The notes below the pieces were generated by a model. The model saw nothing but the letters and a program-made list of their open reading frames with translations. It was not told the DNA's origin and made no database searches. Positions 5,550 to 29,335 of a stretch of DNA of 64,000 bases are shown here, one piece after another; the stretch's first letter is position 1, and every line of letters begins with the position of its first letter. The stretch spans positions 4,703 to 68,702 of the IMG/VR virus record IMGVR_UViG_3300050026_000261; one strand, 5' to 3'. This DNA comes from a virus. The translations under genes were made by a program, and so were the position numbers.

Positions 5550-5654
5550 TGGTATAATTAACTTGTGGGATAGGGTAGCTCCTGAACGGGCGGTTTCCTG
5601 ACCGCCCTTCCCGCAGTAATAATTCAGGACAACACTACAGGAGGTGTTATTATT
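5550..5654 (+). promoter_or_regulatory. Extended -10 promoter plus structured leader RNA (copy 1)
   Basis: TGgTATAAT; P1 TGTGGGA/TCCCGCA; P3 GGGCGGT/ACCGCCC with loop TTCCTG; downstream TCAGGA; SD inside hairpin AACAC...GTGTT. Confidence 0.75.
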
Positions 5655-6338
5655 ATGGGTAAGATTATTGATTTAACAGGGCAGAAATTTGATAAGCTTT
5701 TGGTAAAACAATTTCATGGAATATCTTTGAGCAATCGGCAGGCGACATGGCTCTGCCAGTGTGCCTGTGGTAGAGAAGTAATTAGAAACTCTACTTGCCT
5801 AAGGAATAAAAGTATTACCAAAAACTGTGGGAAGCCCGGTTGTGGTAATACTTATTTTGAGGAAAACGGTCATCTTGTTGGGTTGACATTTAAAGGAGAA
5901 AGATATTTATTAGATAAAGAGGATTATTCTAAAATATGTAACCTTACTTGGATACGCGATCTTGCAAGAGGGTATATTTATGCCAGAAAAACGCACTCTA
6001 AAACGGCTATATATATGCATCATTTAATCATAGAAGCTCCTAATGGCTGCATAGATCATATAAATTTAGACAAGTCGGACAACAGGAAAGATAATCTTAG
6101 GATATGCACTATTCAACAAAATAGTTTTAATCGAGGAAAACACAAAGGGAAGCGTTTGAGTATTTATAAAGGAGTAACACAAAACGCAAAAAGGAATAAA
6201 TATATTGCTCAAATTCGTAAGGAAGGTAAGATTTATAGATTAGGTTATTTTGAAACAGAAGAAGAGGCTGCTTTTGCATATAACAAAGCAGCGATAGAGA
6301 TGTTTGGAGAGTTTGCGAAACTTAATGATATTGAATAA
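5655..6338 (+). CDS. HNH endonuclease with AP2 DNA-binding domain (moron)
   Basis: DLTGQKF...WLCQCACG N-terminus; IDHINLDKSDNRKDNLR; YKGV...LGYFETEEEAAFAYN; AT-rich, with its own promoter and terminator. Confidence 0.9.
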   Translation: MGKIIDLTGQKFDKLLVKQFHGISLSNRQATWLCQCACGREVIRNSTCLRNKSITKNCGKPGCGNTYFEENGHLVGLTFKGERYLLDKEDYSKICNLTWIRDLARGYIYARKTHSKTAIYMHHLIIEAPNGCIDHINLDKSDNRKDNLRICTIQQNSFNRGKHKGKRLSIYKGVTQNAKRNKYIAQIRKEGKIYRLGYFETEEEAAFAYNKAAIEMFGEFAKLNDIE

Positions 6339-6358
6339 TTAATCAATACAGAGTGATA

Positions 6359-6388
6359 GGGCATCTCTTCGGAGGTGCTTTTATTTTT
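6359..6388 (+). terminator. Intrinsic terminator
   Basis: GCATCTC-TTCG-GAGGTGC followed by a T tract. Confidence 0.8.
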
Positions 6389-6405
6389 GAGCAGGTGATC
6401 TCCCC

Positions 6406-7251
6406 ATGGTTGCACTCCGCAACGCAGACCTATTTCAGCCCCATCGTCGCCCAGAGTCCCTTTTCTTCCGCTCCATATTAGACATTACCGATTACCTGCG
6501 CCAGGCAATCCAAGGAGAGGGCGACCCTTTCGGTATCGTGCAGATACTCAAATCAGCATTGAATACTCCGGCCTTCGCTCTATACGCTGAAACGGTGGCA
6601 AAGAACATGGTGACGATGCTGCAGCGAGATAACGCACGCTCATGGCGGGAAGCGGCCAGGGAGTCCAGCCGGGGGCGGCTCATCTACGAAGCTTTGAGGC
6701 AGGAACTTAATGGGCCAGCCGGCGGCGAGTTCTATCACCAGATTGCCAGAAACGCCGAGCTGATCAAAACGTTACCCCAGGACATCGCGCAGCATGTGAC
6801 GGATTACATCGGCGAGGAGTCACTGAAAGGCCGCAGGGCTGAGGATATTGCCGCAGACATACAGAAGATGTTCCCCGCATCGTCAAGGGCGAAGGCGCAG
6901 TTGATTGCCCGGACGGAAGTAAGCAAGGTATCAACCGCTTTGACACAGGCCAGAGCACAGAACCTGGGGATGGACTGGTACGAATGGATCACAAGCGAAG
7001 ACCAAAGGGTCCGGCCATCACATCACAAGATGCAGGGCGTATTGATTCGGTGGAGCGATCCGCCGGCACCAGAAGCCTTAATCGGAATCAGGTCAACCCT
7101 CGGACATTACAACAGCGGAGAATGCCCGAACTGCCGCTGCTTCCCGGCCCCATTGACGGACGTTGACCGGGTTTCCTGGCCACACAAATGCTACATTAAT
7201 GGCCAAATTTTGATGCTGGCAAAGAGCCGATTCTTACAAATTGCGGCCTAA
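6406..7251 (+). CDS. Minor head protein (Mu gpF/SPP1 gp7 family)
   Basis: RAKAQLIARTE, YEWITSEDQRVRPSH, CPNCRC motifs. Confidence 0.9.
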   Translation: MVALRNADLFQPHRRPESLFFRSILDITDYLRQAIQGEGDPFGIVQILKSALNTPAFALYAETVAKNMVTMLQRDNARSWREAARESSRGRLIYEALRQELNGPAGGEFYHQIARNAELIKTLPQDIAQHVTDYIGEESLKGRRAEDIAADIQKMFPASSRAKAQLIARTEVSKVSTALTQARAQNLGMDWYEWITSEDQRVRPSHHKMQGVLIRWSDPPAPEALIGIRSTLGHYNSGECPNCRCFPAPLTDVDRVSWPHKCYINGQILMLAKSRFLQIAA

Positions 7252-7266
7252 TTGAGGTGATGCCTC

Positions 7267-8172
7267 TTGACATTACCCCTGAACGATATTGTAAGCGTGA
7301 CTATATATTTGGCTCAAAATCTCAGTATACAAGGAGTGATTATTCCGGTGGCAAACAATATTGCAAATCTTCCCCCGGTGACAGGCCGTATTTTGGATGA
7401 AAATTCAATCCCCTTTAATATCGCCAATTTTTGGGAGTCAATCTGTTCGAGTGGCTACGAGACTGGTGCAACCGGCGGATCAACCAATATCTCCGCGGCG
7501 ACCACTCCGACGTTTGAAATCGCCGTAGACCTGAACGTTGTTCAAAATGCTTTTCAGACCGTTACATTGAACCCTGCAGGCTTGACATCAGGACTATTGA
7601 TCGCCAGCGCGATGCAGACGGCGATTCAGGCGTTAGGTGGGAATTATCAATGGGTGACTGTGGCCTTTACTGGCGGCGTCTATGTGATCACTTCAGGCAC
7701 CATCGGGCCGGGGTCAAAGGTAAGGATCGCGGCAGGGCCGACGAACGACGTAGCGGCTACTCTCAAGATTGGGGCAGCGAATGGCGCAGTGGACACCGAT
7801 GGCAAGATTACGGGGCTGCCTACTCAAGTCTCTGGGAGTATAGTTGCACAAGCAAACCTCGGTACTGGCACAACCGTAGCCCAATTACCGTCAGTATCAC
7901 CAGGGGTTTCCGGCAATGCCCGCCTTCATATCTTCGGCACTGGTGCTTTTGATGTACAGGTTGTTGGCCTCTTGAATTCAACTGATACTACTTGGATGGT
8001 TATTCCTGCAAGTCCTGCGGCAGTTCCTTCCGGCCTGCCAAGCCTGGCGCAGGTGACTGATGTAACGGCAGAAGGAGTTTATGACTTTGACGTTCAGGGG
8101 TTCTATGGAGTTGCTCTGAATGTTGTCGCTGTTGTAACAAGCGTCAGTGCGGTAGGGTGGTGGACAGTCTAA
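7267..8172 (+). CDS. Putative virion protein with a sheath-like N-terminus and sheath-type accessory domain
   Basis: N-terminus MTLPLNDIV resembles sheath MATLPLSDIV; central domain similar to the 11787 ORF; G/T/A-rich beta composition. Confidence 0.55.
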   Translation: MTLPLNDIVSVTIYLAQNLSIQGVIIPVANNIANLPPVTGRILDENSIPFNIANFWESICSSGYETGATGGSTNISAATTPTFEIAVDLNVVQNAFQTVTLNPAGLTSGLLIASAMQTAIQALGGNYQWVTVAFTGGVYVITSGTIGPGSKVRIAAGPTNDVAATLKIGAANGAVDTDGKITGLPTQVSGSIVAQANLGTGTTVAQLPSVSPGVSGNARLHIFGTGAFDVQVVGLLNSTDTTWMVIPASPAAVPSGLPSLAQVTDVTAEGVYDFDVQGFYGVALNVVAVVTSVSAVGWWTV

Positions 8173-9828
8173 ATGAAAGATAGATCAGCAGAAAGATTGG
8201 CGCGAGCAGCTTTGACCCCATCCTTCATTTCCCAGTTAGGCCGGCCTCCGCGAGTACTCATGGTGACGGATAGTATCAACGTATCGCCTAACATTACGCC
8301 TAACCTGCAAGCTATGATACCAGGATTGCAGGAGTTCGGTTATTATGCGACCACTTTCAGCGGATCTCAGGCACCTATGGGTATGCTCAACTTGGCAACA
8401 GACATACAGTCGTACTGCCAACAAGGGAACCTGATACCGAATAGCAGCAACTGGGCAGCTACGTGGATTTTAGGTAATGTCACCCTAACAAGTGGAACAA
8501 GCCCGACAACTGGGGCCAATGTTAAAGCGGTAACGGCAGCAGGGCAGAGTGGTCAGTATATGGAGTTATTCTTTACGGTTCCCAGTGGCCCGCCGACCTC
8601 ATTTACCTTTAGCGTAGACGTTGAAGCCGGAACGATGCAATCTTTGAATATCACGATTTATAACGTCACCAAAAGTGGCTCTTTAAAGGGGAATGTTTTC
8701 AACCCAACCGATTTTCAGTCGATTATGACTGGGCTTCCAACTACGTTAACAATGACCGTGTTAAATTCAGATGGGGTTGGGTGGAGCGTTGGTGATTCCA
8801 TCAGAGTTATGATGCTGCCCAACTCTGTGAGTTCTGCTGCTTGCACCTTCTACGCATCCAACATGAGGGTGAACGCTGGTGGTATCCCTGCTCCGTACCA
8901 TGCTACAACGGGGACTGCCGATCCGGTTTCTGCCTCTGCATGGTTGAATACCAATACGTCCATAGACAGAACGCTATTCGATTTATGCGTAATCGAGTTT
9001 TCCCGCAACGATATGGGCACTGTGGATGCCTTGAATTTTGAACAAGCGATCTCCGGTTTAATAAGCGCAGCGGCACAACTTTGTGGCAGGGTTATGGTAG
9101 AAACGCCTCCTCCTCTTGCTGCGGCAGGTTTAGCAAGTTGGAGTTCGACGGATACCTTTGTATCCAGTGGATTCTACCGGGCATTGAAAAGGGCAGCAGC
9201 GAGGCATGGGGCATATTTCTATGATGCCTACAACGCCTTTAAAAATCTTGTATCTAGTGGACAGTTCACGATTGCCCAACTCATGCAGTCAAACTTAGAG
9301 CACGCGACCGACTCAAGCAACTATCCGTTGCCTCCATCTCCTGGGATAGCTCAATATATTAATGCTCAGTACAGCGTTTTAACTCAGCCCTATGACCAGC
9401 CAGCCAGGGCATTAAGCAGGACACCTTGCCTGAGACTTGGGGGGCAACCTACAGGATCGTTCGCATGGACAAGATTTACTGGTGCTGGGACATGGATGAC
9501 GGAATTGGCTTATGGCTATGTCAGCGCATATAGCTCTCCAGAAATCACTTACGCAATGGCAAGTTCTACTCCAGGAGACACCCTGACGTTTCCGAATGTC
9601 TACGGTAAAAACATCGGTGTGATTCATCTTTGTGTCGAAAGTGCTGCGGGTAGTTATATGGTTACTATAGACGGTCAGTTAATTAACACATTCAGTAACT
9701 TGAACTCTGGGTTGCAGGATCAACCCAGGGGCCAGTGGTTGGCAAACGGCCTCCCAGACGGTCCTCATACTGTTGTGCTAACGGTAGTGTCTGGGCAGTG
9801 CCCGATCATCGGCGTAGTTGGTTGCTAA
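8173..9828 (+). CDS. SGNH/GDSL-like hydrolase with an inserted carbohydrate-binding-like domain
   Basis: Degenerate SGNH blocks VLMVTDSI, VIEFSRND, NLEH; C-terminal beta domain (VTIDG...GPHTVVL). Confidence 0.6.
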   Translation: MKDRSAERLARAALTPSFISQLGRPPRVLMVTDSINVSPNITPNLQAMIPGLQEFGYYATTFSGSQAPMGMLNLATDIQSYCQQGNLIPNSSNWAATWILGNVTLTSGTSPTTGANVKAVTAAGQSGQYMELFFTVPSGPPTSFTFSVDVEAGTMQSLNITIYNVTKSGSLKGNVFNPTDFQSIMTGLPTTLTMTVLNSDGVGWSVGDSIRVMMLPNSVSSAACTFYASNMRVNAGGIPAPYHATTGTADPVSASAWLNTNTSIDRTLFDLCVIEFSRNDMGTVDALNFEQAISGLISAAAQLCGRVMVETPPPLAAAGLASWSSTDTFVSSGFYRALKRAAARHGAYFYDAYNAFKNLVSSGQFTIAQLMQSNLEHATDSSNYPLPPSPGIAQYINAQYSVLTQPYDQPARALSRTPCLRLGGQPTGSFAWTRFTGAGTWMTELAYGYVSAYSSPEITYAMASSTPGDTLTFPNVYGKNIGVIHLCVESAAGSYMVTIDGQLINTFSNLNSGLQDQPRGQWLANGLPDGPHTVVLTVVSGQCPIIGVVGC

Positions 9829-9833
9829 AACCC

Positions 9834-10367
9834 TTACGGGAGATTCGTTAACGGCATAGATTTAATGAATATGGCAGGGCTACCTGCAAAAATCGAGTGC
9901 GAGGGAACATCGGTTATCACTACATAATTTGCACCAATAGCGATATCATCGCCTATATTGACGGGGCCTAGAATAGCAACACCGCAAAATACCTTAACCT
10001 TATCTCCAATTATTGGGACTCTGCGACCATTACGATTGCTGTAACTGTCTTTCATGCCGATAGTAGTATTTTGATATAGCGTAAAATTGTTACCTATTTC
10101 AACATTAGGGCCAATAACGATGCCGACAGGGTGAATAACACGAAAACCTGGACCAATTGTTGCGCTTGAATCTATTTCGGCACCAAAAAGAAAGCGTCCA
10201 AAATTTGTAAAAAAGTCAGAAAGAATGAGAAAATGGTTCCTGTAAAACCAGTTAGAAATACGATAATTTACAACTAGCCAAAAGGGAGAAAAGCAAAAAA
10301 AACCTCCAATCAATCGTAGCGGCGTTAATCTGCTGACACGATAATCGTCTTTAATTGACATGATCAT
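9834..10367 (-). CDS. Hexapeptide-repeat O-acetyltransferase (CysE/WcaB-like), AT-rich moron
   Basis: GAEIDSSATIGPGFRVIHPVGIVIG...PIIGDKV...IGANYVVITDVP left-handed beta-helix repeats; SD AAAGGAG favours a start at 10361. Confidence 0.85.
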   Translation of the reverse strand: MIMSIKDDYRVSRLTPLRLIGGFFCFSPFWLVVNYRISNWFYRNHFLILSDFFTNFGRFLFGAEIDSSATIGPGFRVIHPVGIVIGPNVEIGNNFTLYQNTTIGMKDSYSNRNGRRVPIIGDKVKVFCGVAILGPVNIGDDIAIGANYVVITDVPSHSIFAGSPAIFIKSMPLTNLP

Positions 10368-10385
10368 GCTCCTTTAAAAAGATGT

Positions 10386-10415
10386 ATTTAGCATAATATT
10401 CGGATAATGTTTAAG
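10386..10415. other. dif-like imperfect palindrome, candidate recombination site
   Basis: ATTTAGCATAA (1 mismatch to the reverse complement of the E. coli XerD arm TTATGTTAAAT), 8-bp spacer, TAATGTTTAAG. Confidence 0.35.
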
Positions 10416-10468
10416 AATCCCTTCTCGCGCTTTCGGAAGGGCGCTGACGCGAGAAGGAATAGGACAAA

Positions 10469-10482
10469 AGAACGTATTTTCT
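10469..10482. promoter_or_regulatory. Firmicute LexA (Cheo)-like SOS box
   Basis: AGAAC-GTAT-TTTCT versus GAAC-N4-GTTC, one core mismatch; just upstream of the recombinase promoter. Confidence 0.45.
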
Positions 10483-10506
10483 GGTTAGATATTGTTGGAT
10501 AGGACA

Positions 10507-10636
10507 TGATATGATACCGTAGAAGCAGACATAAGGGATCGGCCTGATCAGCTGGTCCTGGTGCGCTCCCTGGGCACACCCCTTGTCTGCTTCATCTCTT
10601 CCAGGGGCCAAAAAACCACCAGGGAGGGGTCATATC
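10507..10636 (+). promoter_or_regulatory. Extended -10 promoter plus structured leader RNA (copy 2, most divergent)
   Basis: TGaTATGAT; P1 GAAGCAGACA/TGTCTGCTTC; P2 GGGATCGGC/GCTGGTCCT; P3 loop TCCCTGG complementary to CCAGGGG and to CCAGGGAG (SD). Confidence 0.7.
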
Positions 10637-11473
10637 ATGCTTTTATCTCAGGCTTGGTCCGTCTATGAGGCGGACAAGTTCCTGGCCGGCTACTCGCCGG
10701 TCACACTCAAAAGTTACCGTCTACAGATCAACCTACTTATCAGGGGCATCGGGGATCTCGAGATCGGTGAGGTCACACTGGTGCAGCTCAAAAGCTACCT
10801 TGCTGCCCAGACTCATTTAAAGCCGGCCTCGTTGGGGCACCGGGTCAGGTTCATCCGATCATTCTTCAACTGGGCGCATCAGGAGGGCTTCATCCCACTT
10901 AACCCGGCATACAAGCTCTTTGAACCCAAGATAGGTCAACGGTTGCCCAAAGCATTGAATGAAGAGGATACTGAGATGCTCCGGGAAGGCTGCAAGTCAG
11001 CCCTCGAGCACGCCCTGATCGAATTTGCCTATACCACCGGCTGCCGGGTAGGGGAGATGTACCGCCTCGATCGGAATCAGATCAACTGGGAGCAGAGGTC
11101 GGCCATTGTTCTAGGGAAAGGCGACAAGGAGCGGGAAGTCTATTTTAGCATCAAATGCGGAATCTGGCTGAAGAAGTACCTACTTAATCGACACGACCAA
11201 GATCCGGCCCTGTTTGTGACGGAGCGAGCTCCGCATAGAATGAGCATCTCGGAGATCCGGTACATCGTCAAGCGAGTGGCCAAGAAGAGTGATGTCCAGG
11301 CCAACGTCTATCCGCACAAATTGAGACACAGCTATGCGACCCATTTATTAAATAATGGGGCGCCACTGGAAGCAATCCAGTCGTTTTTAGGGCATGCAAA
11401 GATCGAAACGACCCGTATATATGCGAATCTGAGCGGGCCGCGAAGAAGAGAACTGTATCAAAAGTATTTTTAG
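10637..11473 (+). CDS. XerC/XerD-like tyrosine recombinase
   Basis: Complete catalytic set [31 protein letters not shown]; N-terminal SAM-like domain; no arm-binding domain; ATG at 10637 has an SD. Confidence 0.95.
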
Positions 11474-11482
11474 GACATAACC

Positions 11483-11507
11483 AAGCCGCCTTTCGGGGCG
11501 GTTTTTT
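11483..11507 (+). terminator. Intrinsic terminator
   Basis: GCCGCCT-TTCG-GGGCGGT followed by a T tract. Confidence 0.85.
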
Positions 11508-11538
11508 CATTCCCCCCCTGGAAGGTGGTGATGAATAT

Positions 11539-11721
11539 ATGCCATTGGAAGAAGGCAGTTCAAAAGCTGTGATCGGGCACAACATAGGCGAACTTGAGAA
11601 TGCCGGACATAAGCCTTCGCAGGCCATTGCCATAGCTTTCAAAGAGGCCGGCGAGTCAAAAGATACCGGCCACCTCTCCGGTATGGATGCGATTCTCAGC
11701 CATCCACTGTCCAACAAATAG
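11539..11721 (+). CDS. Small head-cluster phage protein
   Basis: [16 protein letters not shown]...QAIAIA motif of a type common beside DUF2213 genes; SD AGGTGG. Confidence 0.6.
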
Positions 11722-11786
11722 GTTTCACAGCGCCTCCCTGTGAGGTGCTTTTTTATTACCAAAACTCAAAAAGGAGGCACAAAACA

Positions 11787-12524
11787 ATGCCATTTCCCAG
11801 CGCCAATTTCCAGATCACCAACCAGGTAGGTTTCTCAATCGCTAACGGTGTTTTCATCAACGGCACCGCTGGGGTCGGCACCGCCGGGACATTGACTTCC
11901 GCGGCTAGCCCTGCAACCACCCTGTCTGGTATCACTGGCCCAAACTTCAACATCCAGCTTGATGGCGACCCGACGCCCCGCAATATCGTATTAACCAACA
12001 CCGATGCGACAGGGGCAGCTATTGCCGGCGAGATTCAATCGGTGATGCAGGCGCTGACTGGCGTACCAGCGAGCTACAAGACAGCGACCTGCGCCTACAC
12101 CAGTTCGAAGTATGTTATCACATCCGCTTTGTTGGGTAGCACATCGCAGGTTGTAGTGACTCCTGGCGCCACCGCAACCGGATCAACAACGGACATCGCC
12201 GCCACGCTGAAATTGACCACAGTTACAGGAGCGGTTGCCGTCCAGGGTACAGACACCGGTATATTCCAGACTGCCGCAGGAGCGCAGAATCCCTACGTAG
12301 CGCAGGAGAATACCCGCTCCCGGCTCTGGGTGACATCAGATACTGCAGGCTATCTGTACCTGATCAAGGATGGCATTGCCAGATTACTGAATGGCGGTAC
12401 GACTATGACCGTCCAAGTTCCAGTGATAGTGACGGATCTCCCGATCATGTTCGGGTCTACCTATAACATTGCCCATGCGGCAGCCGGAGCAAAGCTTAAA
12501 GTCGAATGGCTCGGCGGTATGTAG
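11787..12524 (+). CDS. Putative virion protein containing a sheath-type accessory domain
   Basis: SD AAGGAGG before ATG 11787; FNIQLDG...IAGEIQSVMQAL...YVITS...DIAATLKL block shared with the 7267 ORF. Confidence 0.6.
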   Translation: MPFPSANFQITNQVGFSIANGVFINGTAGVGTAGTLTSAASPATTLSGITGPNFNIQLDGDPTPRNIVLTNTDATGAAIAGEIQSVMQALTGVPASYKTATCAYTSSKYVITSALLGSTSQVVVTPGATATGSTTDIAATLKLTTVTGAVAVQGTDTGIFQTAAGAQNPYVAQENTRSRLWVTSDTAGYLYLIKDGIARLLNGGTTMTVQVPVIVTDLPIMFGSTYNIAHAAAGAKLKVEWLGGM

Positions 12525-12563
12525 ACCTTTGTCAATGCTGTTTTATATCGAGGTGGTGACGAT

Positions 12564-13832: not shown

Positions 13833-13833
13833 C

Positions 13834-14397: not shown

Positions 14398-14418
14398 CCG
14401 GCAGAAAGGAGAACCAAA

Positions 14419-15492: not shown

Positions 15493-15519
15493 GAAGCATA
15501 TCAGGATTTGAAACATTCC

Positions 15520-16690: not shown

Positions 16691-16698
16691 GTGATCCC

Positions 16699-20654: not shown

Positions 20655-20665
20655 GGGGGCCGACA

Positions 20666-21094: not shown

Positions 21095-21104
21095 GAGGTA
21101 AATT

Positions 21105-21560
21105 ATGAACGAGGTTAGGCCTAGGTTTAAGGATGTAGAAATAAGCGGCAGGAACTTTAGGCTTAGAAAGTTTCCTGCCCAGACTGGCGGCTATGTCGCA
21201 ATCAAGGTAGCAGGGATTTTAGCCCCGATGTTTGACCTGATTGCTTCGAATCAGGGTATTGAAATCGGTCAGGTGATAGCGCCGATGCTTAGTGCCCTAT
21301 CGAAGCTGACGGAAGCAGACTTCATGGATATTCAATCGAAATCCTTGCGGATCTGTTTCGAGCTGTTACAAGGCGGCGAGACGCAGGTTTTAAACCAGGA
21401 GGGAACCTTCGGCGTGATCGGGCTGGATGATGATGCCACGATCTGCATGGCCTTGATGGTCCATGCCTTAATTTTTAACCTCTCATCTTTTTTTCAAGGA
21501 AACCCCCTGACATCACTGCTCGGGGGACTGAATATGAGCTTGCCAGGTGCTCAAACGTAG
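21105..21560 (+). CDS. Tail assembly chaperone (G-like)
   Basis: Position between tube and tape measure; slippery T7 run at 21488-21494. Confidence 0.75.
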   Translation: MNEVRPRFKDVEISGRNFRLRKFPAQTGGYVAIKVAGILAPMFDLIASNQGIEIGQVIAPMLSALSKLTEADFMDIQSKSLRICFELLQGGETQVLNQEGTFGVIGLDDDATICMALMVHALIFNLSSFFQGNPLTSLLGGLNMSLPGAQT

Positions 21561-21721
21561 ATGAGACATTGTTCGCTCCCGTGATGGCAGGGCACTGGAA
21601 ACAGTGTCAACTCTGGAATGGTGATTATGACCTCGATGATTTGCTGGACATCCTGGAGGCAATGAGTGTTAAAGCGGAAAACGAATGGCGCAGCTATCTG
21701 TCGTCGAAAGGGGGAGCCTGA
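21105..21721 (+). CDS. Tail assembly chaperone -1 frameshift product (GT-like)
   Basis: T-TTT-TTT heptamer; -1 frame stays open to a TGA that overlaps the tape-measure ATG (…APVMAGHWKQCQLWNGDYDLDDLLDI…). Confidence 0.75.
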
Positions 21722-23211
21722 TGCCGGGGATCGATGTAATACGGGAATATCTCGTTTCGCTCGGTTTTGACACTGACCAGGCATCCCTCGGCAAAGCCCA
21801 AGGCGCTCTCACCCAGATGGCGAAGTCTGTTAATAGTTTCAGTAGTTCGCTTGAGGGCTTGGCGATAGTCGGGGGAGTCATTGCAGCTATTGGTGGGCTG
21901 GCGGCAGTATTTGAGCAACTGACACTTGGCGTTGCTGGTGCTACAATTAAAAATCAAGAATTTAGCCGGCAGATGTGGATGGACTACGATACAGCAGTGG
22001 CTTTCAAATCTTCATTAGATAGTTTAGGCGTTTCTATCCAAGATTTATATCTATCTCCTACTTTGATGAACGCATTTATCCAGTTTCGTCAGTTAGCACA
22101 ACAAATGAAAACTCCCGCTGATTTCCAAAGCACCATGGATAATCTTCAACAGATCACATTTCAGTTTGATGAGTTCAAATTAGAGGCAAGTTATGCGATC
22201 CAGTGGATTGGGTATGCTTTGGCGAAAGACTTATCCGGACCTTTGGGAGATTTCCAAGACGGGTTAAAAAAGCTAAATACTTGGATTATCACAACGATGC
22301 CTGTGTGGGCAAAAAAAATAGCTGACTTCATAGTAAATATAATAAAAGTGTTCAAAGATATCTACACCGCAGGCAAGGATTTCGTTGACTGGTGGGACAA
22401 TCTCGGATCGAAGTGGCAGCATGCCATCGAAATATCTACCGGCCTCGTAATCGGGATCATGGCGATTGGCAAGGCTATCACAATCGTCATGGGGATCATG
22501 GCCGCCATGGCGGATGCTAATTTACCCCTGTTGGCAATATCTGCCGCTATCCTTGCGATTATCCTTCTGATACAGGATTTTATGACTTACCAGAACGGCG
22601 GTCAGAGTGCGCTGGGTGGACTTTGGGCATGGATTGACAAGATGGCAAGCAGCCCAGAGATCGCGCAATTGAAACAGAGTTTCGATGATTTTAAGCAGTC
22701 TTTAGAAAGCGTCTTCGGCGCATTCGGCGATGTTATAACAGCGATAGCAAATCTCCTGGGAACAGGATCGGGGATGGTCAGTTGGGGACAGTTATTTAAG
22801 GGTATCATAGATGCCCTTACAAGCTCCTTGAAGGCTCTAGCCGGTGAGCTTAATACTGTCTCTGGTTTGATACAGGGTATTACTGGTGTTGCAACCGGGA
22901 ATCAGGCAGATATAAACGCTGGGCAAACAGCCGTCCAGAAAGGGATCGGTCAGGTGTTGCCCGGTTCGACCACAGGTGCTCCATTGTGGCAAACGATGTT
23001 GGAATATGCTTTCGGCGGTCCCAGCCTTGGATCATCGGGATTGATCAATCAATTATTCAGTTCTCCGCCAAGTGGTGCGAAGACGACAACAATAACCCTG
23101 CAACCCACTTACAACATAAATGGTGCGCAGGCACCTAAAAGCGTGGCAGACGAGATCCAGGGAAATAACATAAGTTTGATCATGCGGGGGACGCAGGGGA
23201 TGGTGTTCTAA
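21721..23211 (+). CDS. Tape measure protein (about 496 aa)
   Basis: IREYLVSLGF N-terminus, helical A/G-rich body with hydrophobic stretches; position. Confidence 0.8.
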   Translation: MPGIDVIREYLVSLGFDTDQASLGKAQGALTQMAKSVNSFSSSLEGLAIVGGVIAAIGGLAAVFEQLTLGVAGATIKNQEFSRQMWMDYDTAVAFKSSLDSLGVSIQDLYLSPTLMNAFIQFRQLAQQMKTPADFQSTMDNLQQITFQFDEFKLEASYAIQWIGYALAKDLSGPLGDFQDGLKKLNTWIITTMPVWAKKIADFIVNIIKVFKDIYTAGKDFVDWWDNLGSKWQHAIEISTGLVIGIMAIGKAITIVMGIMAAMADANLPLLAISAAILAIILLIQDFMTYQNGGQSALGGLWAWIDKMASSPEIAQLKQSFDDFKQSLESVFGAFGDVITAIANLLGTGSGMVSWGQLFKGIIDALTSSLKALAGELNTVSGLIQGITGVATGNQADINAGQTAVQKGIGQVLPGSTTGAPLWQTMLEYAFGGPSLGSSGLINQLFSSPPSGAKTTTITLQPTYNINGAQAPKSVADEIQGNNISLIMRGTQGMVF

Positions 23212-23855
23212 TGTCCATCGTTTACTATAACGGCACATCGGTTCCATCCACTACTCCCCCGCTAAGCGAGATCGGGCAACAATTATTATATGTGAAAAAT
23301 AACATCGGCGGCCTCTTTTTCGACGCATTCCTGAAATTAACCCATACCTCTTCATTAACGATCACACAGCACCCGGTCGAAACGGGCGCCGCTATTTCAG
23401 ATCACAGTTATATCATGCCAACCACTCTGGTCTGTGATATCGGGGTTTCAGATGTTGGAACGTCGATTGTCCCGGGACAGTTCGGGGGGCAGACAACTCT
23501 TGCTGGTCTGGCTGGGCCAATTGGGGAACCCCAATCCCGATCCGTCAACGCATTCCAGGCATTACTGGCGTTACAACAGAGTCGCGTCCCTGTCCAGGTC
23601 ACTACTCGGCTGAACTTGTATAACAATATGCTCATTCAAAGCATCGTGACTTCAGAGGACAACACCACGGCGCATGCCTGGAAAGCGACGGTCACTATGC
23701 AGGAGATTTTCGTTGCTGTGGTACAGACGGTGAAGGTCTCTTCGCAGCCGCAGGTTACGGATTCAACGGTAAAAGGGGTAGTACAACCAGCGGCATTGAC
23801 ACCTGCGAACGCAGGCGCAAAAAGTTTGATTATGGCAATCTATAATGCGCTGTAG
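23211..23855 (+). CDS. Baseplate/tube-initiator protein
   Basis: ITQHPVETGAAISDH and YNNMLIQSI motifs. Confidence 0.75.
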   Translation: MSIVYYNGTSVPSTTPPLSEIGQQLLYVKNNIGGLFFDAFLKLTHTSSLTITQHPVETGAAISDHSYIMPTTLVCDIGVSDVGTSIVPGQFGGQTTLAGLAGPIGEPQSRSVNAFQALLALQQSRVPVQVTTRLNLYNNMLIQSIVTSEDNTTAHAWKATVTMQEIFVAVVQTVKVSSQPQVTDSTVKGVVQPAALTPANAGAKSLIMAIYNAL

Positions 23856-23924
23856 AATAAGTGCCAAATTTGCAGGAAAATAGATCCCTCCGTGGAGTAT
23901 AATACTCTCCAAGGGGGGATTGGG

Positions 23925-24890
23925 ATGGATAAGGAGCAAAAACCTAAACGAAAAGGTCTTCCGATATGGCTTTGGATTATTATTGGTTTTTTTGTGCTGG
24001 CTATTATTGGCAGCATAAGCAACAGGAATGCTCCTTCGACACCTACAACAGAACCAAGCTCGGTTAGCCCTCAACAATCAAGTGCTCCAATACCACCACC
24101 AACAATACCACCACCAACAATACCACCTGTTCAAGTATCAGCCACAACTTTGACAGCCGATTATGTAAATAATCAATTTGCGGCGGATGAAGAATATAAA
24201 GGTAAGATTTTAGATGTATCGGGTACTGTATCTGATATAGATAGAGATATATTTGGGAATCCATTTATAGAATTTTACACTGGCCAGGGTATGGAAAATG
24301 CTCTTTTTACTTTTTCTAATAATAATGCTGCTTCTTTAGCTAAAATTAGTGTTGGTGAGCCATTAACTATTCAGGCCACATGCAAAGGTAAATCGGGCAC
24401 TGCAGTGGATATGGAAGATTGTAGCATTATCCCAAACGGGCAAGAATCAACACAAGCATCTGCTACTCCAACTGTTCAGCCTCCAACTCCAATAGTGCAA
24501 AGTCAAGCGATTCAGAGTAATAATGATGTAGTTGCTGCCGGAGAGACTGCTAATACGATTACAGGATTGACACTTAATCAGCAGTATTCTGAGCTTTATA
24601 ATTATCTTGATCCAGATGATCAAGCTACGACTTCTCAGCAAGAGTTTATTACTTCTCAGCAAACCCCAGGGTATGTGTCTGGGAGTTATACTTACAGTAT
24701 AGATTATGCAGATATTGTAATGGTGCCTACATGGGCTGATAAAGGAACTGGGAATACATATAATAATGTTGCGAAAGTGCCGGTTACATGGGCTGGAAAG
24801 ACTAGCGGTAAGTCAGTAACATTAATAATGCATTTGATTAAAGCTTCTGATGGAACATGGAGAACGTTTTTGGATTGGCCAGCGCAATAA
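23925..24890 (+). CDS. Membrane-anchored OB-fold (tRNA_anti-like) surface protein, AT-rich moron
   Basis: N-terminal TM helix, PPTI repeats, 'ADEEYKGKILDVSGTVSDI' motif; own TATAAT and terminator. Confidence 0.7.
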   Translation: MDKEQKPKRKGLPIWLWIIIGFFVLAIIGSISNRNAPSTPTTEPSSVSPQQSSAPIPPPTIPPPTIPPVQVSATTLTADYVNNQFAADEEYKGKILDVSGTVSDIDRDIFGNPFIEFYTGQGMENALFTFSNNNAASLAKISVGEPLTIQATCKGKSGTAVDMEDCSIIPNGQESTQASATPTVQPPTPIVQSQAIQSNNDVVAAGETANTITGLTLNQQYSELYNYLDPDDQATTSQQEFITSQQTPGYVSGSYTYSIDYADIVMVPTWADKGTGNTYNNVAKVPVTWAGKTSGKSVTLIMHLIKASDGTWRTFLDWPAQ

Positions 24891-24917
24891 AACGATTGAT
24901 GTGATGCCTAATGGAAG

Positions 24918-24941
24918 AAGCTCCTTTCGGGGCTTTTTTTT
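24918..24941 (+). terminator. Intrinsic terminator
   Basis: AAGCTCC/GGGGCTT stem followed by a T tract. Confidence 0.75.
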
Positions 24942-24957
24942 ATTTGGAGGTGGCTTC

Positions 24958-25299
24958 GTGGCAGTTTACAGTGTCATACCGCTTGACAATAGTCCAAACC
25001 AGCAATTAACAGTTACAATTCCTATAAATAATCAAAATATCACTTTGAACCTGGCTATATCCTGGAATGCCCAAGCGCAATATTGGGTGATGACGATAAA
25101 AGATAGGAATAATAACATAATTCTTGATGGTGTTCCCCTTCTCTGCGGGCAACCTCCCGCCCAGGATCTTCTAGGACAGTACGCGTACCTCAATCTTGGA
25201 TCGGTCTTTATCGTCAACACTGGTAATGCAGTGCTTGACAGCCCAAACGACCAGACTCTCGGATCGGATTTCATCATGATTTGGGGCGACTCATTATAG
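24958..25299 (+). CDS. Baseplate plug-like protein
   Basis: SD GGAGG then GTG; IPLDNSPNQ...WVMTI...VPLLCG...DLLGQYAYLNLG. Confidence 0.65.
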   Translation: MAVYSVIPLDNSPNQQLTVTIPINNQNITLNLAISWNAQAQYWVMTIKDRNNNIILDGVPLLCGQPPAQDLLGQYAYLNLGSVFIVNTGNAVLDSPNDQTLGSDFIMIWGDSL

Positions 25300-25312
25300 A
25301 GGGTGATCAACC

Positions 25313-26818
25313 ATGTCCATCCAAGACTGTGCCACAGCAGCAGCAAACACTTTTCCTTCATCCATCCAGGAAATAATGGTCGAGATTGCCGGCGCTGAAT
25401 CGTCCTGGGTCAATAACTGCCCCGGGGATTTCGGGCTAACAGATGGGCCGCAAGCATCAGATGGATCGACATCCTGGGGTTTGTGGCAAATCAACTCGAT
25501 CAATAGTGACATTCTACAGAACTTTACAGGATCATCAGATCCTGATACATGGCAACAGTGGTGCTACGATCCCAACAACAACGCCCAGGCCGCCCTGCAA
25601 ATTTATAACAATCCGCAAGGCCTGGGCAACTGGAGCACCTATACATCAGGGGCATACCTCAACTTCACAACTGATGCCCAGAATGCCCTGAGCGGTTGCC
25701 CTACGACAAACCTAACCTCTAACAATGCTTTCACCGGCACCGGCACAGAGAATATCACACTGCCGACCACCAACTACAACATAGTCGCCGGGACTCAGGC
25801 TCAGGGCGATGTTCTGTACGGGCGGAAATACAGAGTATTAATCCTGAACCCCAATGGTCCTGCCATTACAGGCACCGCGGGAGGATCAGCTATTACTCAG
25901 GCAGCGGGAGCAGACACAGCAACCGCTGGGCAGTCTCTCACATCACAGATAACGCCCACCACGGCCCTGGATGTTTCGCAACTCCATTGCGTTTTTAGTT
26001 GCGTTTCGACGATGATGATTCAGCCATTATGGAGCATCTGCACTATCTATAATCTTAGCCCGGAAACAGAAAATACGATCATCATGGAAGGCTTTCAGAT
26101 CATCATTGAGGCTGGCTATGAAGGTTCGCAGTACGGTCAGATATACCAGGGGAATATCGTCCAATGTATCCGGGACAAGCCCGATGGGGCGACTTATACT
26201 CTTACTTTAGTTTCAATGGATGCCCAGGAATTTCAGACTTATGGCACGGTGATCGGGACTCTGACCAGGGGTGCAAACAGCAGGGCGCAGATTGGCTATG
26301 TGGCCTCGGCTTGCTCTGTACCTACGCCTATTGGAAAATTGACGCCCGATCTATCAACAACCGGATTGACCCGGGGCAAGGTATTTTTCGGAATGGCTAG
26401 CGATTATTTGAGGCAGATCGCTCAGTCGGAAAATGCAACCTATTATTTGGAAGACGGGAATGTGAATATTGTCAAGGTAACGGATCTGCCGACTGATGAA
26501 GTTATCGATCTCACACCAAATACCGGGCTTATTGGGGTACCGGCGCAATCTGAATACGGGGCGACCATTAAGATGTTGATGAATCCAAAGGTGAAGATAG
26601 GTACAATGGTGCATGTGAATAATAGTTTGATCAGGAACGAGCAGTATGCGCAGGGTCAGGCGATCTATGCTTTGGATAACGATGGCCTATATCGTGCAAT
26701 CAAGAAAACTTTTACAGGTGATACACGCGGTACTGATTGGTACACGGAGATAGAAACTGTAACCCAAACAGGAATCGCACCTTCGATGATTACGAGTGGT
26801 GGTCAAAGTCCCTACTAG
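25313..26818 (+). CDS. Baseplate hub with N-terminal lysozyme/transglycosylase domain
   Basis: AESS...GLWQIN lytic motif; hub motifs IYNLSPET, EAGYEG, RGKVFFG, TGLIGVP, GDTRGTDWY. Confidence 0.8.
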   Translation: MSIQDCATAAANTFPSSIQEIMVEIAGAESSWVNNCPGDFGLTDGPQASDGSTSWGLWQINSINSDILQNFTGSSDPDTWQQWCYDPNNNAQAALQIYNNPQGLGNWSTYTSGAYLNFTTDAQNALSGCPTTNLTSNNAFTGTGTENITLPTTNYNIVAGTQAQGDVLYGRKYRVLILNPNGPAITGTAGGSAITQAAGADTATAGQSLTSQITPTTALDVSQLHCVFSCVSTMMIQPLWSICTIYNLSPETENTIIMEGFQIIIEAGYEGSQYGQIYQGNIVQCIRDKPDGATYTLTLVSMDAQEFQTYGTVIGTLTRGANSRAQIGYVASACSVPTPIGKLTPDLSTTGLTRGKVFFGMASDYLRQIAQSENATYYLEDGNVNIVKVTDLPTDEVIDLTPNTGLIGVPAQSEYGATIKMLMNPKVKIGTMVHVNNSLIRNEQYAQGQAIYALDNDGLYRAIKKTFTGDTRGTDWYTEIETVTQTGIAPSMITSGGQSPY

Positions 26819-26827
26819 GAGGTCCCC

Positions 26828-27433
26828 ATGCTAACTATAGGCGAACGCATCACGAATGATAAGACCCCCAGCGAATTCTACCTCCGGCAGCAGGATAAAA
26901 CAAAAGTTGACATCAAAGTTGCCACTCCTGGTATCATTCAATCCTTTGATCCGGTGGAGCAGACAGTCACGGTGCAACCGGCCATCAGGGAGAGGGTCCG
27001 TGATCAATACGGTAACCTCTCATATGTGAATCTGCCTTTACTGGTGGATGTGCCAGTTCACTGGCCCAGGGCGGGTGGTCTAGTTCTCACTTTCCCTATT
27101 GTCCAAGGCGATGAATGCCTTGTTATTTTTGGTGATAACTGCATGGATGCATGGTGGAGTTATGGGGACATCCAGAACCCCATTGAAAAAAGAAGGCATG
27201 ACCTGTCGGACGGTTACGCCATTGTGGGGTTGACATCGCAGCATAATCCCATTTTGAACTACAGCACTACATCTGCACAATTAAGAACCGAGGATGGTCT
27301 GACGAGCATCTCAATAGCACCAGGCGTGATCAACCTGAATGCCACAACGGTCAACATAAACGGGATTAGCATGGCGGCTCATTACCATGATGCGCCTGCA
27401 GGCGGTGGCAATACGTCAGGACCGGAGGGCTAA
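26828..27433 (+). CDS. Baseplate spike (Gp138-like)
   Basis: PGIIQSFD, VPVHWP..GG, GDECLVIF, RRHDLSDG, C-terminal HxH. Confidence 0.85.
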   Translation: MLTIGERITNDKTPSEFYLRQQDKTKVDIKVATPGIIQSFDPVEQTVTVQPAIRERVRDQYGNLSYVNLPLLVDVPVHWPRAGGLVLTFPIVQGDECLVIFGDNCMDAWWSYGDIQNPIEKRRHDLSDGYAIVGLTSQHNPILNYSTTSAQLRTEDGLTSISIAPGVINLNATTVNINGISMAAHYHDAPAGGGNTSGPEG

Positions 27434-27435
27434 AT

Positions 27436-27792
27436 ATGAAATACCGCAAACTCGACCCGCAAGGGGATTTTTCATTTGGCTCCGGCCTTCAAGATTTCTA
27501 CCAGGGGACAGATGCCATCGGGCAAGCAATATATACCGGACTCAAATTATTGCAAAATGAGTGGTGGGAAAATACTGCATTAGGTCTGCCGCTTTTCCAG
27601 ATTATCTTACAGCCCGGCATCTCACAGGCCGCCAAGGACAGCGTTATTCGCAACCAGATTCTAAGTACTCAGGGAGTTACCTCGATGCAAAGTTTTGCCA
27701 GTGTCTACAACTCCGCGACCAGGAGCTACGCAGTATCCGCTGTTGCTAATACTGAGACGGGCAATACAGTGACCATTCAGGAAAGTTGGTGA
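27436..27792 (+). CDS. Baseplate wedge protein (gp25/W-like)
   Basis: YRKLD..GDFSFG, EWWENT..GLP. Confidence 0.75.
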   Translation: MKYRKLDPQGDFSFGSGLQDFYQGTDAIGQAIYTGLKLLQNEWWENTALGLPLFQIILQPGISQAAKDSVIRNQILSTQGVTSMQSFASVYNSATRSYAVSAVANTETGNTVTIQESW

Positions 27793-27796
27793 TCTC

Positions 27797-29227
27797 GTGA
27801 GCTACTTCGCACCGTACATCGATGCCCTTGGTATCCACATCCCATTATTTTCGGATATCATTGCTGATTTAGTTAGTGATATGCAAAGCATCTACGGAGC
27901 AGATGTGTATTTGGGAGTTGATAGCCAGGATTACCAGATGCTTTCAACCTTCGCCTCAAAGACCAATGACACCAATCAGCTTCTAGTCCAAGTCTACAAT
28001 TCCCGCGGCCCAGCTACAGCAACAGGCGCAGGTCTGGACTCCATTGTCAAGCTTAACGGGATCGCCAGGGAGGCATCCACATATTCTTCAACTCCGGTAG
28101 TCTGTTCCGGTTCTTCAGGGACACCGCTTACTAACTGCCTCGCTCAGGATATATCCGGCTACCAGTGGAGCATCCCAAATACGGTCATCGGTGCTGGCGG
28201 TTCGGTTACGGTCACAGTGACATGCACCACCGTAGGCCCTATTGCGGCTAATCCTGGAGCAATCAACATTATTGCCACCCCGACATATGGTTGGACTTCG
28301 GTGACAAATCCTAACGCTGTCTCAGCGAACGACATAGGCCAGAACCAGGAAGCTGATTCAGCATTGAAGGCTAGGCAGGCAATCTCCACGGCAGAGAGCA
28401 ACACTACGCTGCTAGACCAGACCAAGGCAGCCATCGCCTCAGTGGTTGGGGTAACAAGGTTCAGGGTCTATGAAAACTTCGGCAGCGGCTCTGATGGCAA
28501 TGGGGCACCGTCCCACTGCATTTACGCAGTTGTTGACGGTTCCGCGACACTCGCCGCTATTGCCCAGGCCATATTCGACAACAAAGGACCAGGTTGCGGA
28601 ACGTGGGGAACTTCCAGCTATGGCATCGTAGATCAGTGGGGGCAGACGACAACGATTTATTTCTTCCTGCCGACTTATGAACCCATTGATGCGGTGATCC
28701 CTATAACACCACTGGCCGGCTACACGACGCAAACTTTAGCGAATATCCGATTAGCGGTTTACAATTATTTGAACGCTCTCGCCATAGGAGCGAGTTTGCA
28801 GAATGCCGCGATATGGGCCACTGCAATGGGCCAATGCGGATCGATAACCAGCCCGCTATTCGCTGTAAATACGGTTACAGACGCCCTCCACGGCGGATCG
28901 CAGGGAACCTCGACAGTGGCCATGGCTTTTAATCAGGTTACACAGGGAAATCTTTCGTACATTGTGATCACGCCGATGGTAACGGCGATGTCCCCCGCGA
29001 CCGGGTCGAACACCGGGGGTACGGCGGTGACGATTACCGGGGCCGGATTCACCAGAGCTACATCAGTTAAATTCGGGACGGCTTCCGCAACTTCGGTGGT
29101 TGTGGTTTCGGATACGGAGATTACCTGTGTTTCCCCAGCGGTCTCAGCGGGAACTGTCGATGTGACCGTTATTAATGCGGCTGGGACATCGCCGACGAAT
29201 ACCGCGGACCAGTTTATTTACTCATAA
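27797..29227 (+). CDS. Baseplate J/gp47 protein with C-terminal IPT/TIG domain
   Basis: ATGAGLD...GIAR, EADSALKARQ, YEN; C-terminal PMVTAMSPATG...VTITGAGF. Confidence 0.9.
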   Translation: MSYFAPYIDALGIHIPLFSDIIADLVSDMQSIYGADVYLGVDSQDYQMLSTFASKTNDTNQLLVQVYNSRGPATATGAGLDSIVKLNGIAREASTYSSTPVVCSGSSGTPLTNCLAQDISGYQWSIPNTVIGAGGSVTVTVTCTTVGPIAANPGAINIIATPTYGWTSVTNPNAVSANDIGQNQEADSALKARQAISTAESNTTLLDQTKAAIASVVGVTRFRVYENFGSGSDGNGAPSHCIYAVVDGSATLAAIAQAIFDNKGPGCGTWGTSSYGIVDQWGQTTTIYFFLPTYEPIDAVIPITPLAGYTTQTLANIRLAVYNYLNALAIGASLQNAAIWATAMGQCGSITSPLFAVNTVTDALHGGSQGTSTVAMAFNQVTQGNLSYIVITPMVTAMSPATGSNTGGTAVTITGAGFTRATSVKFGTASATSVVVVSDTEITCVSPAVSAGTVDVTVINAAGTSPTNTADQFIYS

Positions 29228-29232
29228 AAAAG

Positions 29233-29335
29233 TGGTATAATATCCTTGTGGGCTAGGGATGTACACCCGATGGCGGTTTCCCAGCCGCCTTGCCCACAAT
29301 TCGATGGGATACTACGAGGGAGGTAGTTTTTTGTT
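29233..29335 (+). promoter_or_regulatory. Extended -10 promoter plus structured leader RNA (copy 3)
   Basis: TGgTATAAT; P1 TTGTGGGC/GCCCACAA; P3 GGCGG/CCGCC with TCCCA in the loop; downstream TGGGA; SD inside hairpin ACTAC...GTAGT. Confidence 0.75.

Follow-up and report, generated by a model that had tools for sequence, protein, structure and literature searches.

Why would one phage genome place the same RNA architecture ahead of three unrelated genes? The question arises in a 64,000-nucleotide stretch of DNA (the window), bases 4703-68702 of the 68.7-kb IMG/VR virus record IMGVR_UViG_3300050026_000261, a record estimated to be complete. Leaders of a common layout stand directly ahead of genes for an HNH-AP2 endonuclease (copy 1), a tyrosine recombinase (copy 2) and a cysteine-rich protein (copy 3). 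In each, a promoter-like site is followed by a three-way junction of helices P1, P2 and P3, by a short box that matches the P3 loop (box 1) and by the Shine-Dalgarno (SD) sequence, which in copies 1 and 3 sits in a further hairpin, P4. The initial annotation had read this as one portable leader architecture ahead of unrelated accessory genes. We agree; the stems, junctions, loops and boxes that it listed are all in place in the three leaders, by sequence and, for the junctions, by RNAfold. Comparison with relatives supports the helices, the two pairings of the P3 loop, the hairpin P4 and the self-complementarity of P2. We propose, with moderate confidence, that the leader is a portable cis-acting element that gates translation initiation and would keep the output of the accessory gene low.

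Three leaders in one phage genome

All three leaders lie on the plus strand. Copy 1 opens with the extended -10 element TGGTATAAT at 5550-5558, 4 nt ahead of an 8-bp P1 (5563-5570 with 5609-5616). UA joins P1 to P2 (5573-5583), which has the loop UAGCU and is followed by GAAC, and P3 (5588-5607) carries the loop UUCCUG. The junction as a whole (5563-5617) is predicted by RNAfold and scores 65.8 bits (E 4e-14) with R2, a covariance model of the family described below. Box 1, UCAGGA (5624-5629), is complementary to the P3 loop and ends 1 nt ahead of the SD hairpin P4 (5631-5648), in which AACACU and GGUGUU enclose the loop ACAGGA; the start codon ATG is at 5655. Copy 3 has the same extended -10, TGGTATAAT, at 29233-29241, again 4 nt ahead of P1 (29246-29253 with 29292-29299). 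UA leads into P2 (29256-29268, loop AUGUACA, then GAU), and P3 (29272-29289) has the loop UUCCCA. Its junction (29246-29300) is likewise predicted by RNAfold and reaches 57.8 bits with R2 (E 4e-12). Box 1 is UGGGA (29305-29309), and P4 (29311-29327) is formed by ACUAC and GUAGU around GAGGGAG, ahead of the ATG at 29336. The two copies are 82% identical over 55 columns, and an unfiltered search of the entire window with R2 matches nothing else. They form part of the training alignment of R2 and so match it by construction; independent relatives are also recovered, by R2 as well as by the earlier model R1. The homology of copies 1 and 3 is plain from their alignment and goes far beyond chance.

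Copy 2 has the same order of parts in a divergent form. An extended -10-like element, TGATATGAT (10507-10515), stands 6 nt ahead of a 10-bp P1 (10522-10531 with 10584-10593), and UAA joins P1 to P2 (10535-10559). P2 has 9 bp and the self-complementary loop CUGAUCA, with no GAAA after it; P3 (10560-10580) contains CUCCCUGG and closes on a 3-nt loop. Box 1, CCAGGGG, is at 10601-10607, and the SD box CCAGGGAGGGG at 10619-10629 holds the second box, CCAGGGAG (10619-10626), ahead of the recombinase ATG at 10637. This junction (10522-10593) was not found by R2. RNAfold gives it -38.1 kcal/mol and, taken alone, a z of -4.56, with none of 200 shuffles equally stable. For the full leaders RNAfold predicts the three-way junction in all three, at z of -2.31, -3.32 and -2.27. 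Both boxes match the P3 loop in every copy. P4 has 5-6 bp in copies 1 and 3 and, judged by eye, only about 3 bp in copy 2. Each P2 loop contains a self-complementary word: AGCU in copy 1, UGAUCA in copy 2 and UGUACA in copy 3.

Relatives and the pairings they conserve

The model R1 was built from copies 1 and 3. A first scan of viral sequences with TAGGGN{4,16}GGCGGTTTCC was too unspecific, returning at least 115 stretches, and none of the 80 loci examined with R1 proved to hold a true relative; blastn of the copy 1 and copy 3 leaders against GenBank phages gave one short match in total, in Aeromonas phage 4_4512, later shown to be a real member. A tighter pattern yielded two true relatives, L132 at the same portal-to-HNH site and L135 ahead of an endonuclease-VII-like gene. 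The 128.7-kb IMG/VR record that holds L132 carries three leaders, before HNH, GIY-YIG-like and second HNH-like genes. This record (L132, L159 and L160) matches the portal-to-HNH junction of the window almost letter for letter around the leader, as might be expected either of related phages or of exchanged cassettes.

The family pattern used thereafter fixed only GGGNTAGGG, CCYGAAA and, within the P3 loop, TTCC; nothing downstream, in box 1 or the SD region, was constrained. It found 66 stretches in viral contigs, about 10 being expected by chance on a rough estimate. From 55 unique candidates six without the fold were dropped by eye (L166, L174, L183, L192, L204 and L225), and L197, a true R1 match, could not be parsed and fell away. 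The 48 parsed members, with near-duplicates merged at 80% identity, form 41 clusters, among them copies 1 and 3 of the window itself (L155 and L158). R2 was built from 42 sequences and covers P1, P2 and P3. Most records carry one copy, and the two copies in L212 share one P3 loop. At the 7 viral-contig loci that encode relatives of the HNH-AP2 protein, R1 with filters off gave nothing below E 0.17; the homologues there thus lack the leader. A search from the recombinase in viral contigs returned one distant locus and was uninformative.

The co-variation of stems that had been claimed from the window is real in this larger set, though not demonstrable on three copies. Across 51 distinct rows, in an alignment fitted to the model, P1 and P3 are 93.8% paired, against 42-50% with slid partners, and 205 cells show double changes against 22-39. 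Compensatory change is present in 12 of the 15 P1 and P3 pairs, and RNAalifold independently recovers both helices. By these measures the covariation of P1 and P3 is real. The helices all vary, around junction letters that are near-invariant (GGG N UA GGG ... CCY GAAA ... YU NCCC).

The initial annotation also proposed alternative pairings, and here comparison favours a P3 loop with two downstream partners, the box and the SD region. Over the 41 clusters the longest Watson-Crick match of the P3 tip averages 5.49 with its own box-1 region against 3.89 with those of other members, and 4.63 against 3.70 for the SD region; none of 20000 permutations did as well in either case. With a refined parse (n=37) the own and other values are 5.97 and 4.25 for the box region and 4.27 and 3.47 for the SD-hairpin loop, again with 0/20000 permutations each. 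A crude two-letter register test of the P3 loop against the P4 loop found complementarity at both positions in just 15 of 31. The cultured phages keep the triple match with a different loop: their P3 loops are of the UCGUNA kind, and box 1 and the P4 loop change accordingly (for example, loop AUCGUAA, box UUACGAU, P4 loop UACGA). These loops are strong and independent backing, at the level of sequence comparison, for both P3-loop pairings. Within one genome, be it that of the window or record G001, the loop of every copy fits its own boxes.

The SD was said to lie in a small hairpin, as it does in copies 1 and 3, and the family bears this out. A P4 stem of at least 5 bp is present in 33 of 41 clusters, where shuffled sequences gave a mean of 16.5 and a maximum of 24 in 300 trials; this control replaced an earlier one that was too lenient, its shuffles giving 29/41 at a stem of at least 4 bp. 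In the family the SD lies in a P4 of 5-8 bp, the loop contains NNNGGA and the last Gs of the SD begin the 3' arm, whose end is 0-4 nt from the start codon in 26/33. Box 1 begins 5-9 nt past P1 in 31/33 and ends within -2 to +1 nt of P4 in 24/33. Because box 1 adjoins P4, the helix that it forms with the P3 loop could stack on P4. Such a stacking clamp fits box 1 at least as well as the decoy role first suggested for it. The P2 loop holds a palindrome of at least 6 nt in 16/41 clusters (shuffles: mean 1.55, maximum 7 in 2000) and of at least 4 nt in 31/41 (11.8 in shuffles), with many different words.

A same-strand start codon follows in 47 of the 48 parsed members, at a median of 35 nt after P1 (interquartile range 32.5-37). 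A -10-like hexamer 4-6 nt ahead of P1 is found in only 11/41 clusters (an extended -10 in 7/41), and promoters of the kind in the window are therefore a feature of a subset. In the window this spacing would put the transcript start inside P1, and the 11 clusters share it. This is what would be expected of a passive 5' element, one that stabilises the mRNA, marks a processing site or insulates: its paired end would protect the accessory message or separate it from the upstream late message and leave the translation rate unset. Stem-loops at the 5' terminus are known mRNA stabilisers, and the leaders do stand between genes of long same-strand operons. Such an element would, however, leave unexplained the covariation of the P3 loop with two downstream sites, the position of box 1 beside the SD hairpin and the conservation of the junction letters and of P2 self-complementarity; 30 of 41 clusters, moreover, have no recognisable -10 at that place. 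We regard a passive role as very unlikely.

Is copy 2 part of this family? The reading of all three leaders as copies of one holds for copies 1 and 3 by model and identity; for copy 2 it stands on architecture and on the leaders of its homologues, not on sequence. Three close homologues of the recombinase behind copy 2, at 67-68% identity, are encoded on metagenome contigs (loci L227, L228 and L229), and a leader of the same architecture lies at the same place ahead of two of them. That of L227 has P1 GCAGGC, UA, a 7-bp P2 with loop CUGAUCA, GAAA, P3 loop CCCCGCA, box 1 CUGCGGG and the SD UGCGGGAGG in the loop of a 5-bp hairpin. That of L229 has P1 AAGCAGGC, UAA, P2 loop AUGCGCAA followed by GA, P3 loop ACUCCUGA, box 1 UCAGGAG and the SD UCAGGAGG, also in a hairpin loop. 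Both keep the match of the P3 loop to box and SD; in a MAFFT alignment of the two the P2 and P3 arms stand one column out of register. The P1 letters GAAGCAGACA of copy 2 are common to the two leaders, and copy 2 and L227 are identical in the loop of P2 and in the 13 bases that end with the ATG. R2, built without recombinase leaders, matches L229 over its full length (20.3 bits, E 0.002). A canonical member, L169, heads a recombinase 32% identical to that of the window (E 1e-38).

The resemblance could instead be fortuitous, copy 2 (10522-10593) being an unrelated GC-rich structure joined to an ordinary SD-sequestering hairpin. R2 over the window, filters off, gives no match to copy 2 at E<=10, and copy 2 does not align with copies 1 and 3. 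A blastn search with the copy 2 leader over all 252 loci finds neither L227 nor L229, so that homology is not shown at the sequence level. The lack of GAAA, the 9-bp P2, the 3-nt P3 loop and the weak P4 are also atypical, and RNAfold pairs the SD with an upstream CUCUUCC. L227 reaches just 9.0 bits on R2 (E 1.4), the family-type fold of L229 lies 3.2 kcal/mol above its minimum free energy fold, and L228, the third homologue, has no leader at its recombinase gene. Set against this, L227 and L229 share UA(A)GG, a self-complementary P2 loop, the loop-box match and an SD hairpin loop at the same place; the P1 letters of L229 (AAGCAGGC) and copy 2 (GAAGCAGACA) correspond, and L227 does have GAAA; the R2 match of L229 and the leader of L169 also count against a chance likeness. 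The name of the Rfam motif int-alpA, to which the family is tied below, also suggests integrase neighbourhoods, a hint taken from the name alone. A chance likeness is in our view unlikely, and copy 2 is probably a true divergent member.

Distribution, neighbouring genes and the int-alpA motif

The initial annotation placed the leader in a Firmicute setting, which the relatives do not bear out. All 12 matches to a strict pattern in GTDB genomes were confirmed by R2; contigs of metagenome-assembled genomes among them are labelled Spirochaetota/Spirochaetales, Deltaproteobacteria, Desulfobacteraceae or Desulfosarcina, and Planctomycetaceae or Phycisphaerae, and one member lies on a 3.5-Mb chromosome. 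In cultured phages the leader occupies unannotated spacers of Enterobacter phage Tyrion (R2 41.2 bits), Vibrio phage PS15B.2 (34.6 bits), Aeromonas phage 4_4512 (33.3 bits, with a second copy at 21.1 bits) and Vibrio phage 1.100.O (28.7 bits). A leader of the Tyrion type is present in 51 of 5426 complete E. coli genomes, ahead of a DUF551 gene in a prophage, between lysis and packaging genes. One such locus (L264; E. coli NCTC8623, NZ_LR134234.1, locus positions 2501-2797) is in a lambdoid-type prophage and has no non-coding RNA annotated. In the Aeromonas phage (L250; MK813942.1, locus positions 1575-1600) the first ATG past the SD hairpin opens a mini-ORF (open reading frame) of 4 codons, whose stop overlaps (UGAUG) the start of an annotated 51-aa hydrophobic protein; the arrangement suggests translational coupling behind the leader.

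Among the 41 downstream ORFs, Pfam identifies HNH_3 in 4, HNH in 3, HNH_2 in 2, HNH_5 in 1, NUMOD3 in 3, AP2 in 3 and GIY-YIG in 2, families that overlap on single proteins so that the counts are not additive. HNH families are likewise the commonest by PHROGs, and on our reading of the annotations at least 13 of the 41 are nucleases. Single members include Phage_integrase, Sigma70_r4, three methyltransferase families, two glycosyltransferase families and DnaT. Seven small proteins of one kind (L170, L180, L188, L190, L203, L209 and L210; 105-145 aa) share the N-terminal motif MKLSV..R..L...LP..G.F.NL, are not nucleases by Pfam and, going by this motif, constitute a second gene class tied to the leader. 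As far as annotation tells, the leader is enriched before homing endonucleases and is not restricted to them.

These surveys bear on a third possibility, that the junction is a sensor which binds a small-molecule ligand or a protein, of the phage or of its host, and thereby chooses the partner of the P3 loop, box 1 or the SD loop. Near-invariant junction letters among varying helices would suit a binding site, and one loop with two mutually exclusive partners resembles an expression platform. The invariance of the letters is, however, partly built in by the search pattern; copy 2 and L229 lack GAAA, the junction is small and the downstream genes have no common metabolic theme. With hosts across several phyla, a protein partner would need to be universal. 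Of a sensor we would say that it is very improbable indeed.

In the window the plus strand carries nearly all the large ORFs. Its DNA was traced to three sequencing runs, recorded as DNA or of unknown type, two of which are labelled peat metagenome. Copy 1 lies between the portal gene (3892-5547, +; 551 aa; Phage_portal_3, 1.6e-106) and the endonuclease gene (5655-6338, +; Pfam HNH_3 and AP2), which is followed by a Mu-F-like head gene. Copy 3 is preceded by a baseplate-J/TIG gene (27797-29227, +) and followed by the cysteine-rich ORF (29336-29908, +; 190 aa), downstream of which is a DUF2612 baseplate gene. The endonuclease gene and the 190-aa ORF thus split the usual neighbours of structural modules, as free-standing insertions typically would. 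Neither Pfam nor PHROG has a family that matches the 190-aa ORF; the AlphaFold2 model, made with no alignment, was uninformative (mean predicted local distance difference test score 40.0), and the ESM Atlas offered no usable match by feature search and a template modelling score of at most 0.33 by structure. The Atlas holds this protein only from residue 26 onward. The SD hairpin of copy 3 favours the ATG at 29336 as its true start.

Behind copy 2 is the tyrosine recombinase gene (10637-11473, +; 278 aa; Pfam Phage_integrase, 2.9e-36). Together with an acetyltransferase-like gene with hexapeptide repeats (9834-10367, -) it lies amid the head-gene region, and the two look like a single inserted cassette. 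Between the minus-strand gene and the promoter of the recombinase cassette, at 10420-10457, is a 10-bp GC-rich inverted repeat (CCTTCTCGCG ... CGCGAGAAGG) with an 18-nt loop, which may be the terminator that closes that gene. Elsewhere in the region the portal ORF and the ORF at 8173-9828 are both exactly 551 aa long; the latter has no Pfam or PHROG match.

Had the leader already been catalogued? The window gave no match to Rfam at gathering score, and permissive scans (E<=10) around the three copies, 85-nt stretches included, returned only noise and no RF02996. Some relatives do, however, reach the gathering score of RF02996, the int-alpA motif (35.8 bits): L244 (47.5), L251 (44.0), L168 (43.5), L175 (40.0), L164 (38.0) and L189 (38.0), the last four being members of the R2 training set. 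The corresponding R2 scores of L244 and L251 are 68.9 and 41.2 bits. Two of 11 loci in a first set and four of 20 in a second pass; in the first these are L244 and Enterobacter phage Tyrion (44.0), with Vibrio phage PS15B.2 falling short at 31.8 and eight others giving no match at E<=5. The RF02996 consensus runs from an 8-bp P1 through UA, a short P2 hairpin, CGAAAA, a P3 with a CCU-containing loop and CU to the P1 return, and its tail ends in AgGG, able to pair with the P3 loop. R2 has the same order of elements, and copies 1 and 3 align to it over their full length; copy 2 meets that order partly, with no GAAA and a longer P2. The window copies are tied to int-alpA because R2 relatives pass its gathering score. 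On these model matches the window leaders belong to a wider family whose core is this catalogued and uncharacterised motif. The initial annotation could name no family, which remains true of the window copies themselves, not of their relatives.

Proposed action and known systems

We propose that in this phage the leader begins at its own sigma-70-type promoter, which would set the 5' end of the transcript at P1. P1 would close the three-way junction with its conserved letters (UA; GAAA; YU) and present two loops, that of P3 as an extended anti-SD and that of P2 as a self-complementary word. Box 1, the partner of the P3 loop, would lie 5-9 nt past P1, directly beside P4. The loop of P4 would hold the 5' half of the SD together with letters matching the P3 loop, and its 3' arm the rest of the SD and the spacer to the start codon. 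P4 would in this way close the ribosome-binding site, locked either by the stacked helix of P3 loop and box 1 or by a loop-loop kiss between P3 and P4. Few ribosomes would start on the mRNA of the accessory gene, often a homing endonuclease, and the cassette would bring its own context-independent expression setting to any landing site. The self-complementary P2 loop possibly pairs two leaders. Repression as the direction, action in cis and dimerisation are the parts that we infer. The switch envisaged in the initial annotation thus keeps its portability and its two-partner loop; signal dependence, processing and action in trans gain no support.

Several observations weigh against such a gate. 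The SDs are strong ones, and of its two partners the P3 loop pairs better with box 1, at a mean duplex energy of -8.83 kcal/mol against -6.79 for the SD and with the stronger pairing in 30/41 clusters. Were box 1 to titrate the anti-SD loop, the SD could be left free, or even be insulated or activated by the leader. Adjacency to P4 favours box 1 as a clamp; the stronger pairing allows a decoy. The two mutually exclusive partners of the P3 loop imply a switch, and with it some trigger, and a plain lock on the ribosome-binding site leaves the highly conserved junction letters unexplained. Int-alpA is typed as a small RNA (sRNA) by Rfam. The downstream genes extend beyond nucleases to integrase, sigma-70 region 4, methyltransferase, glycosyltransferase, DUF551 and the small proteins. 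Copy 2 has no GAAA junction and a weak P4, RNAfold hiding its SD in an ordinary hairpin with CUCUUCC. Finally, the covariation alignment was fitted to the model, and the relatives were ascertained by a pattern that fixes GGGNTAGGG, CCYGAAA and TTCC.

The Rfam type, 'Gene; sRNA', points to a trans-acting RNA like c4: the junction would be cut off in an AU-rich linker to give a stable RNA of about 55-70 nt, whose P3 loop represses matching mRNAs through box 1 and the SD loop. The junction is indeed a self-contained domain at the 5' end, and the two target boxes for each loop recall the paired target sites of c4. Past P1 the AU fraction of the linker is 0.60, compared with 0.41 in the junction, and RNase E-type sites are likewise rich in AU. 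RNase E processing around segB, segG and mobE is reported in PMC2988022. Kinship with c4 had been raised in the initial annotation; the Rfam check gave no match to c4, c4-2 or c4-a1b1, at gathering score or at E<=10 around the three copies. There is no terminator past the junction, and in 47 of 48 members a start codon follows at the median distance of 35 nt. As every copy carries its own loop-box pair, even within one genome, the target of each RNA would be its own 3' neighbour, and pairing in cis would be kinetically favoured. An sRNA acting in trans is accordingly unlikely in our estimation.

A bolder variant of the cis-acting gate, which we think decidedly unlikely, is a self-recognising, dose-sensing switch in which translation is controlled by sequence-addressed homodimerisation of the mRNA. 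Each leader would have its own P2 word (AGCU, UGAUCA and UGUACA in the window; three different words in G001), and only like messages would kiss. In the monomer the P3 loop would rest on its own box 1; in the dimer it would reach the SD-hairpin loop of the partner. A rise in the mRNA of the selfish gene, and with it in the number of phage genome copies, would then depress translation of that gene. If true, this would be translation control by an mRNA homodimer, undescribed for phage or bacterial messages as far as we have searched the literature.

Returning to the gate itself, its interest lies in the genes it precedes. Homing endonucleases and other selfish cassettes need expression that is harmless to the carrier phage, and outside the T-even phages the means are largely unknown. 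Our results suggest that a single widespread RNA module travels with such genes, in uncultured phages of peat, lake and gut, in cultured phages of Vibrio, Aeromonas and Enterobacter and in E. coli prophages. They also suggest a testable role for the orphan motif int-alpA: not a free sRNA but a 5' leader acting on the ribosome-binding site. With a loop-box 'address' for each copy and its self-complementary loop, the module would offer orthogonal RNA regulators as a natural set. Since some members reside in E. coli prophages and cultured phages, the model is testable by ordinary reporter genetics.

Of known systems, int-alpA is the closest: it has the same fold order and the same loop-pairing tail. 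Its model ends at box 1, leaving the SD hairpin outside, and the window copies are below its reach; the Rfam entry is typed as an sRNA, whereas here the element stands as a 5' leader about 35 nt from a start codon. In the literature int-alpA is listed by name, and we found no functional study. The term is absent from the main text of PMC5737381, whose supplements may already state the loop-tail pseudoknot, and our literature search, which took in that main text and a 2026 preprint in part, found no published description of the leader. As far as searched, its extended architecture and likely role are thus unpublished.

Two other candidates were tried and rejected. A hammerhead or other ribozyme, suggested by a three-way junction with GAAA, would require a CUGANGA-type core, which is absent, and no Rfam ribozyme matched. 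A leader peptide after box 1 is incompatible with copies 1 and 3, where no start codon follows box 1.

In phages P1 and P7, c4 is a small, structured antisense RNA derived from the transcript of its own target, and its loops pair with duplicated sites that include the ribosome-binding site. The leader differs in having one pairing loop instead of two and in its fold, and it matches no c4 model. The dimerisation initiation site (SL1) of human immunodeficiency virus 1 (HIV-1) is a hairpin whose loop presents a self-complementary kissing word. The P2 loop is similar in that its word of 4-6 nt varies between lineages and stays self-complementary; SL1 serves a packaged genome and the leader a phage mRNA, and the likeness is offered as an analogy only.

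The nearest functional parallel may be found in T-even and related phages, where, according to PMC2988022, RNA structures that sequester the ribosome-binding site control I-TevI, I-TevII, I-TevIII, segB and Aeh1 mobE. As proposed for the leader, they bury the strong SD of a selfish nuclease gene and limit its translation, and the gene class is one shared by many members of our family. As described there, however, the T-even hairpins are simple, unrelated to one another and present only on read-through transcripts, a late promoter inside the structure bypassing them. In the leader family the promoter-like site is upstream of the whole fold and the SD lies partly inside P4. The T-even hairpins have no sequence or model relation to the leader, which alone combines a conserved three-way junction, long-range pairing of one loop with two partners and a self-complementary loop.

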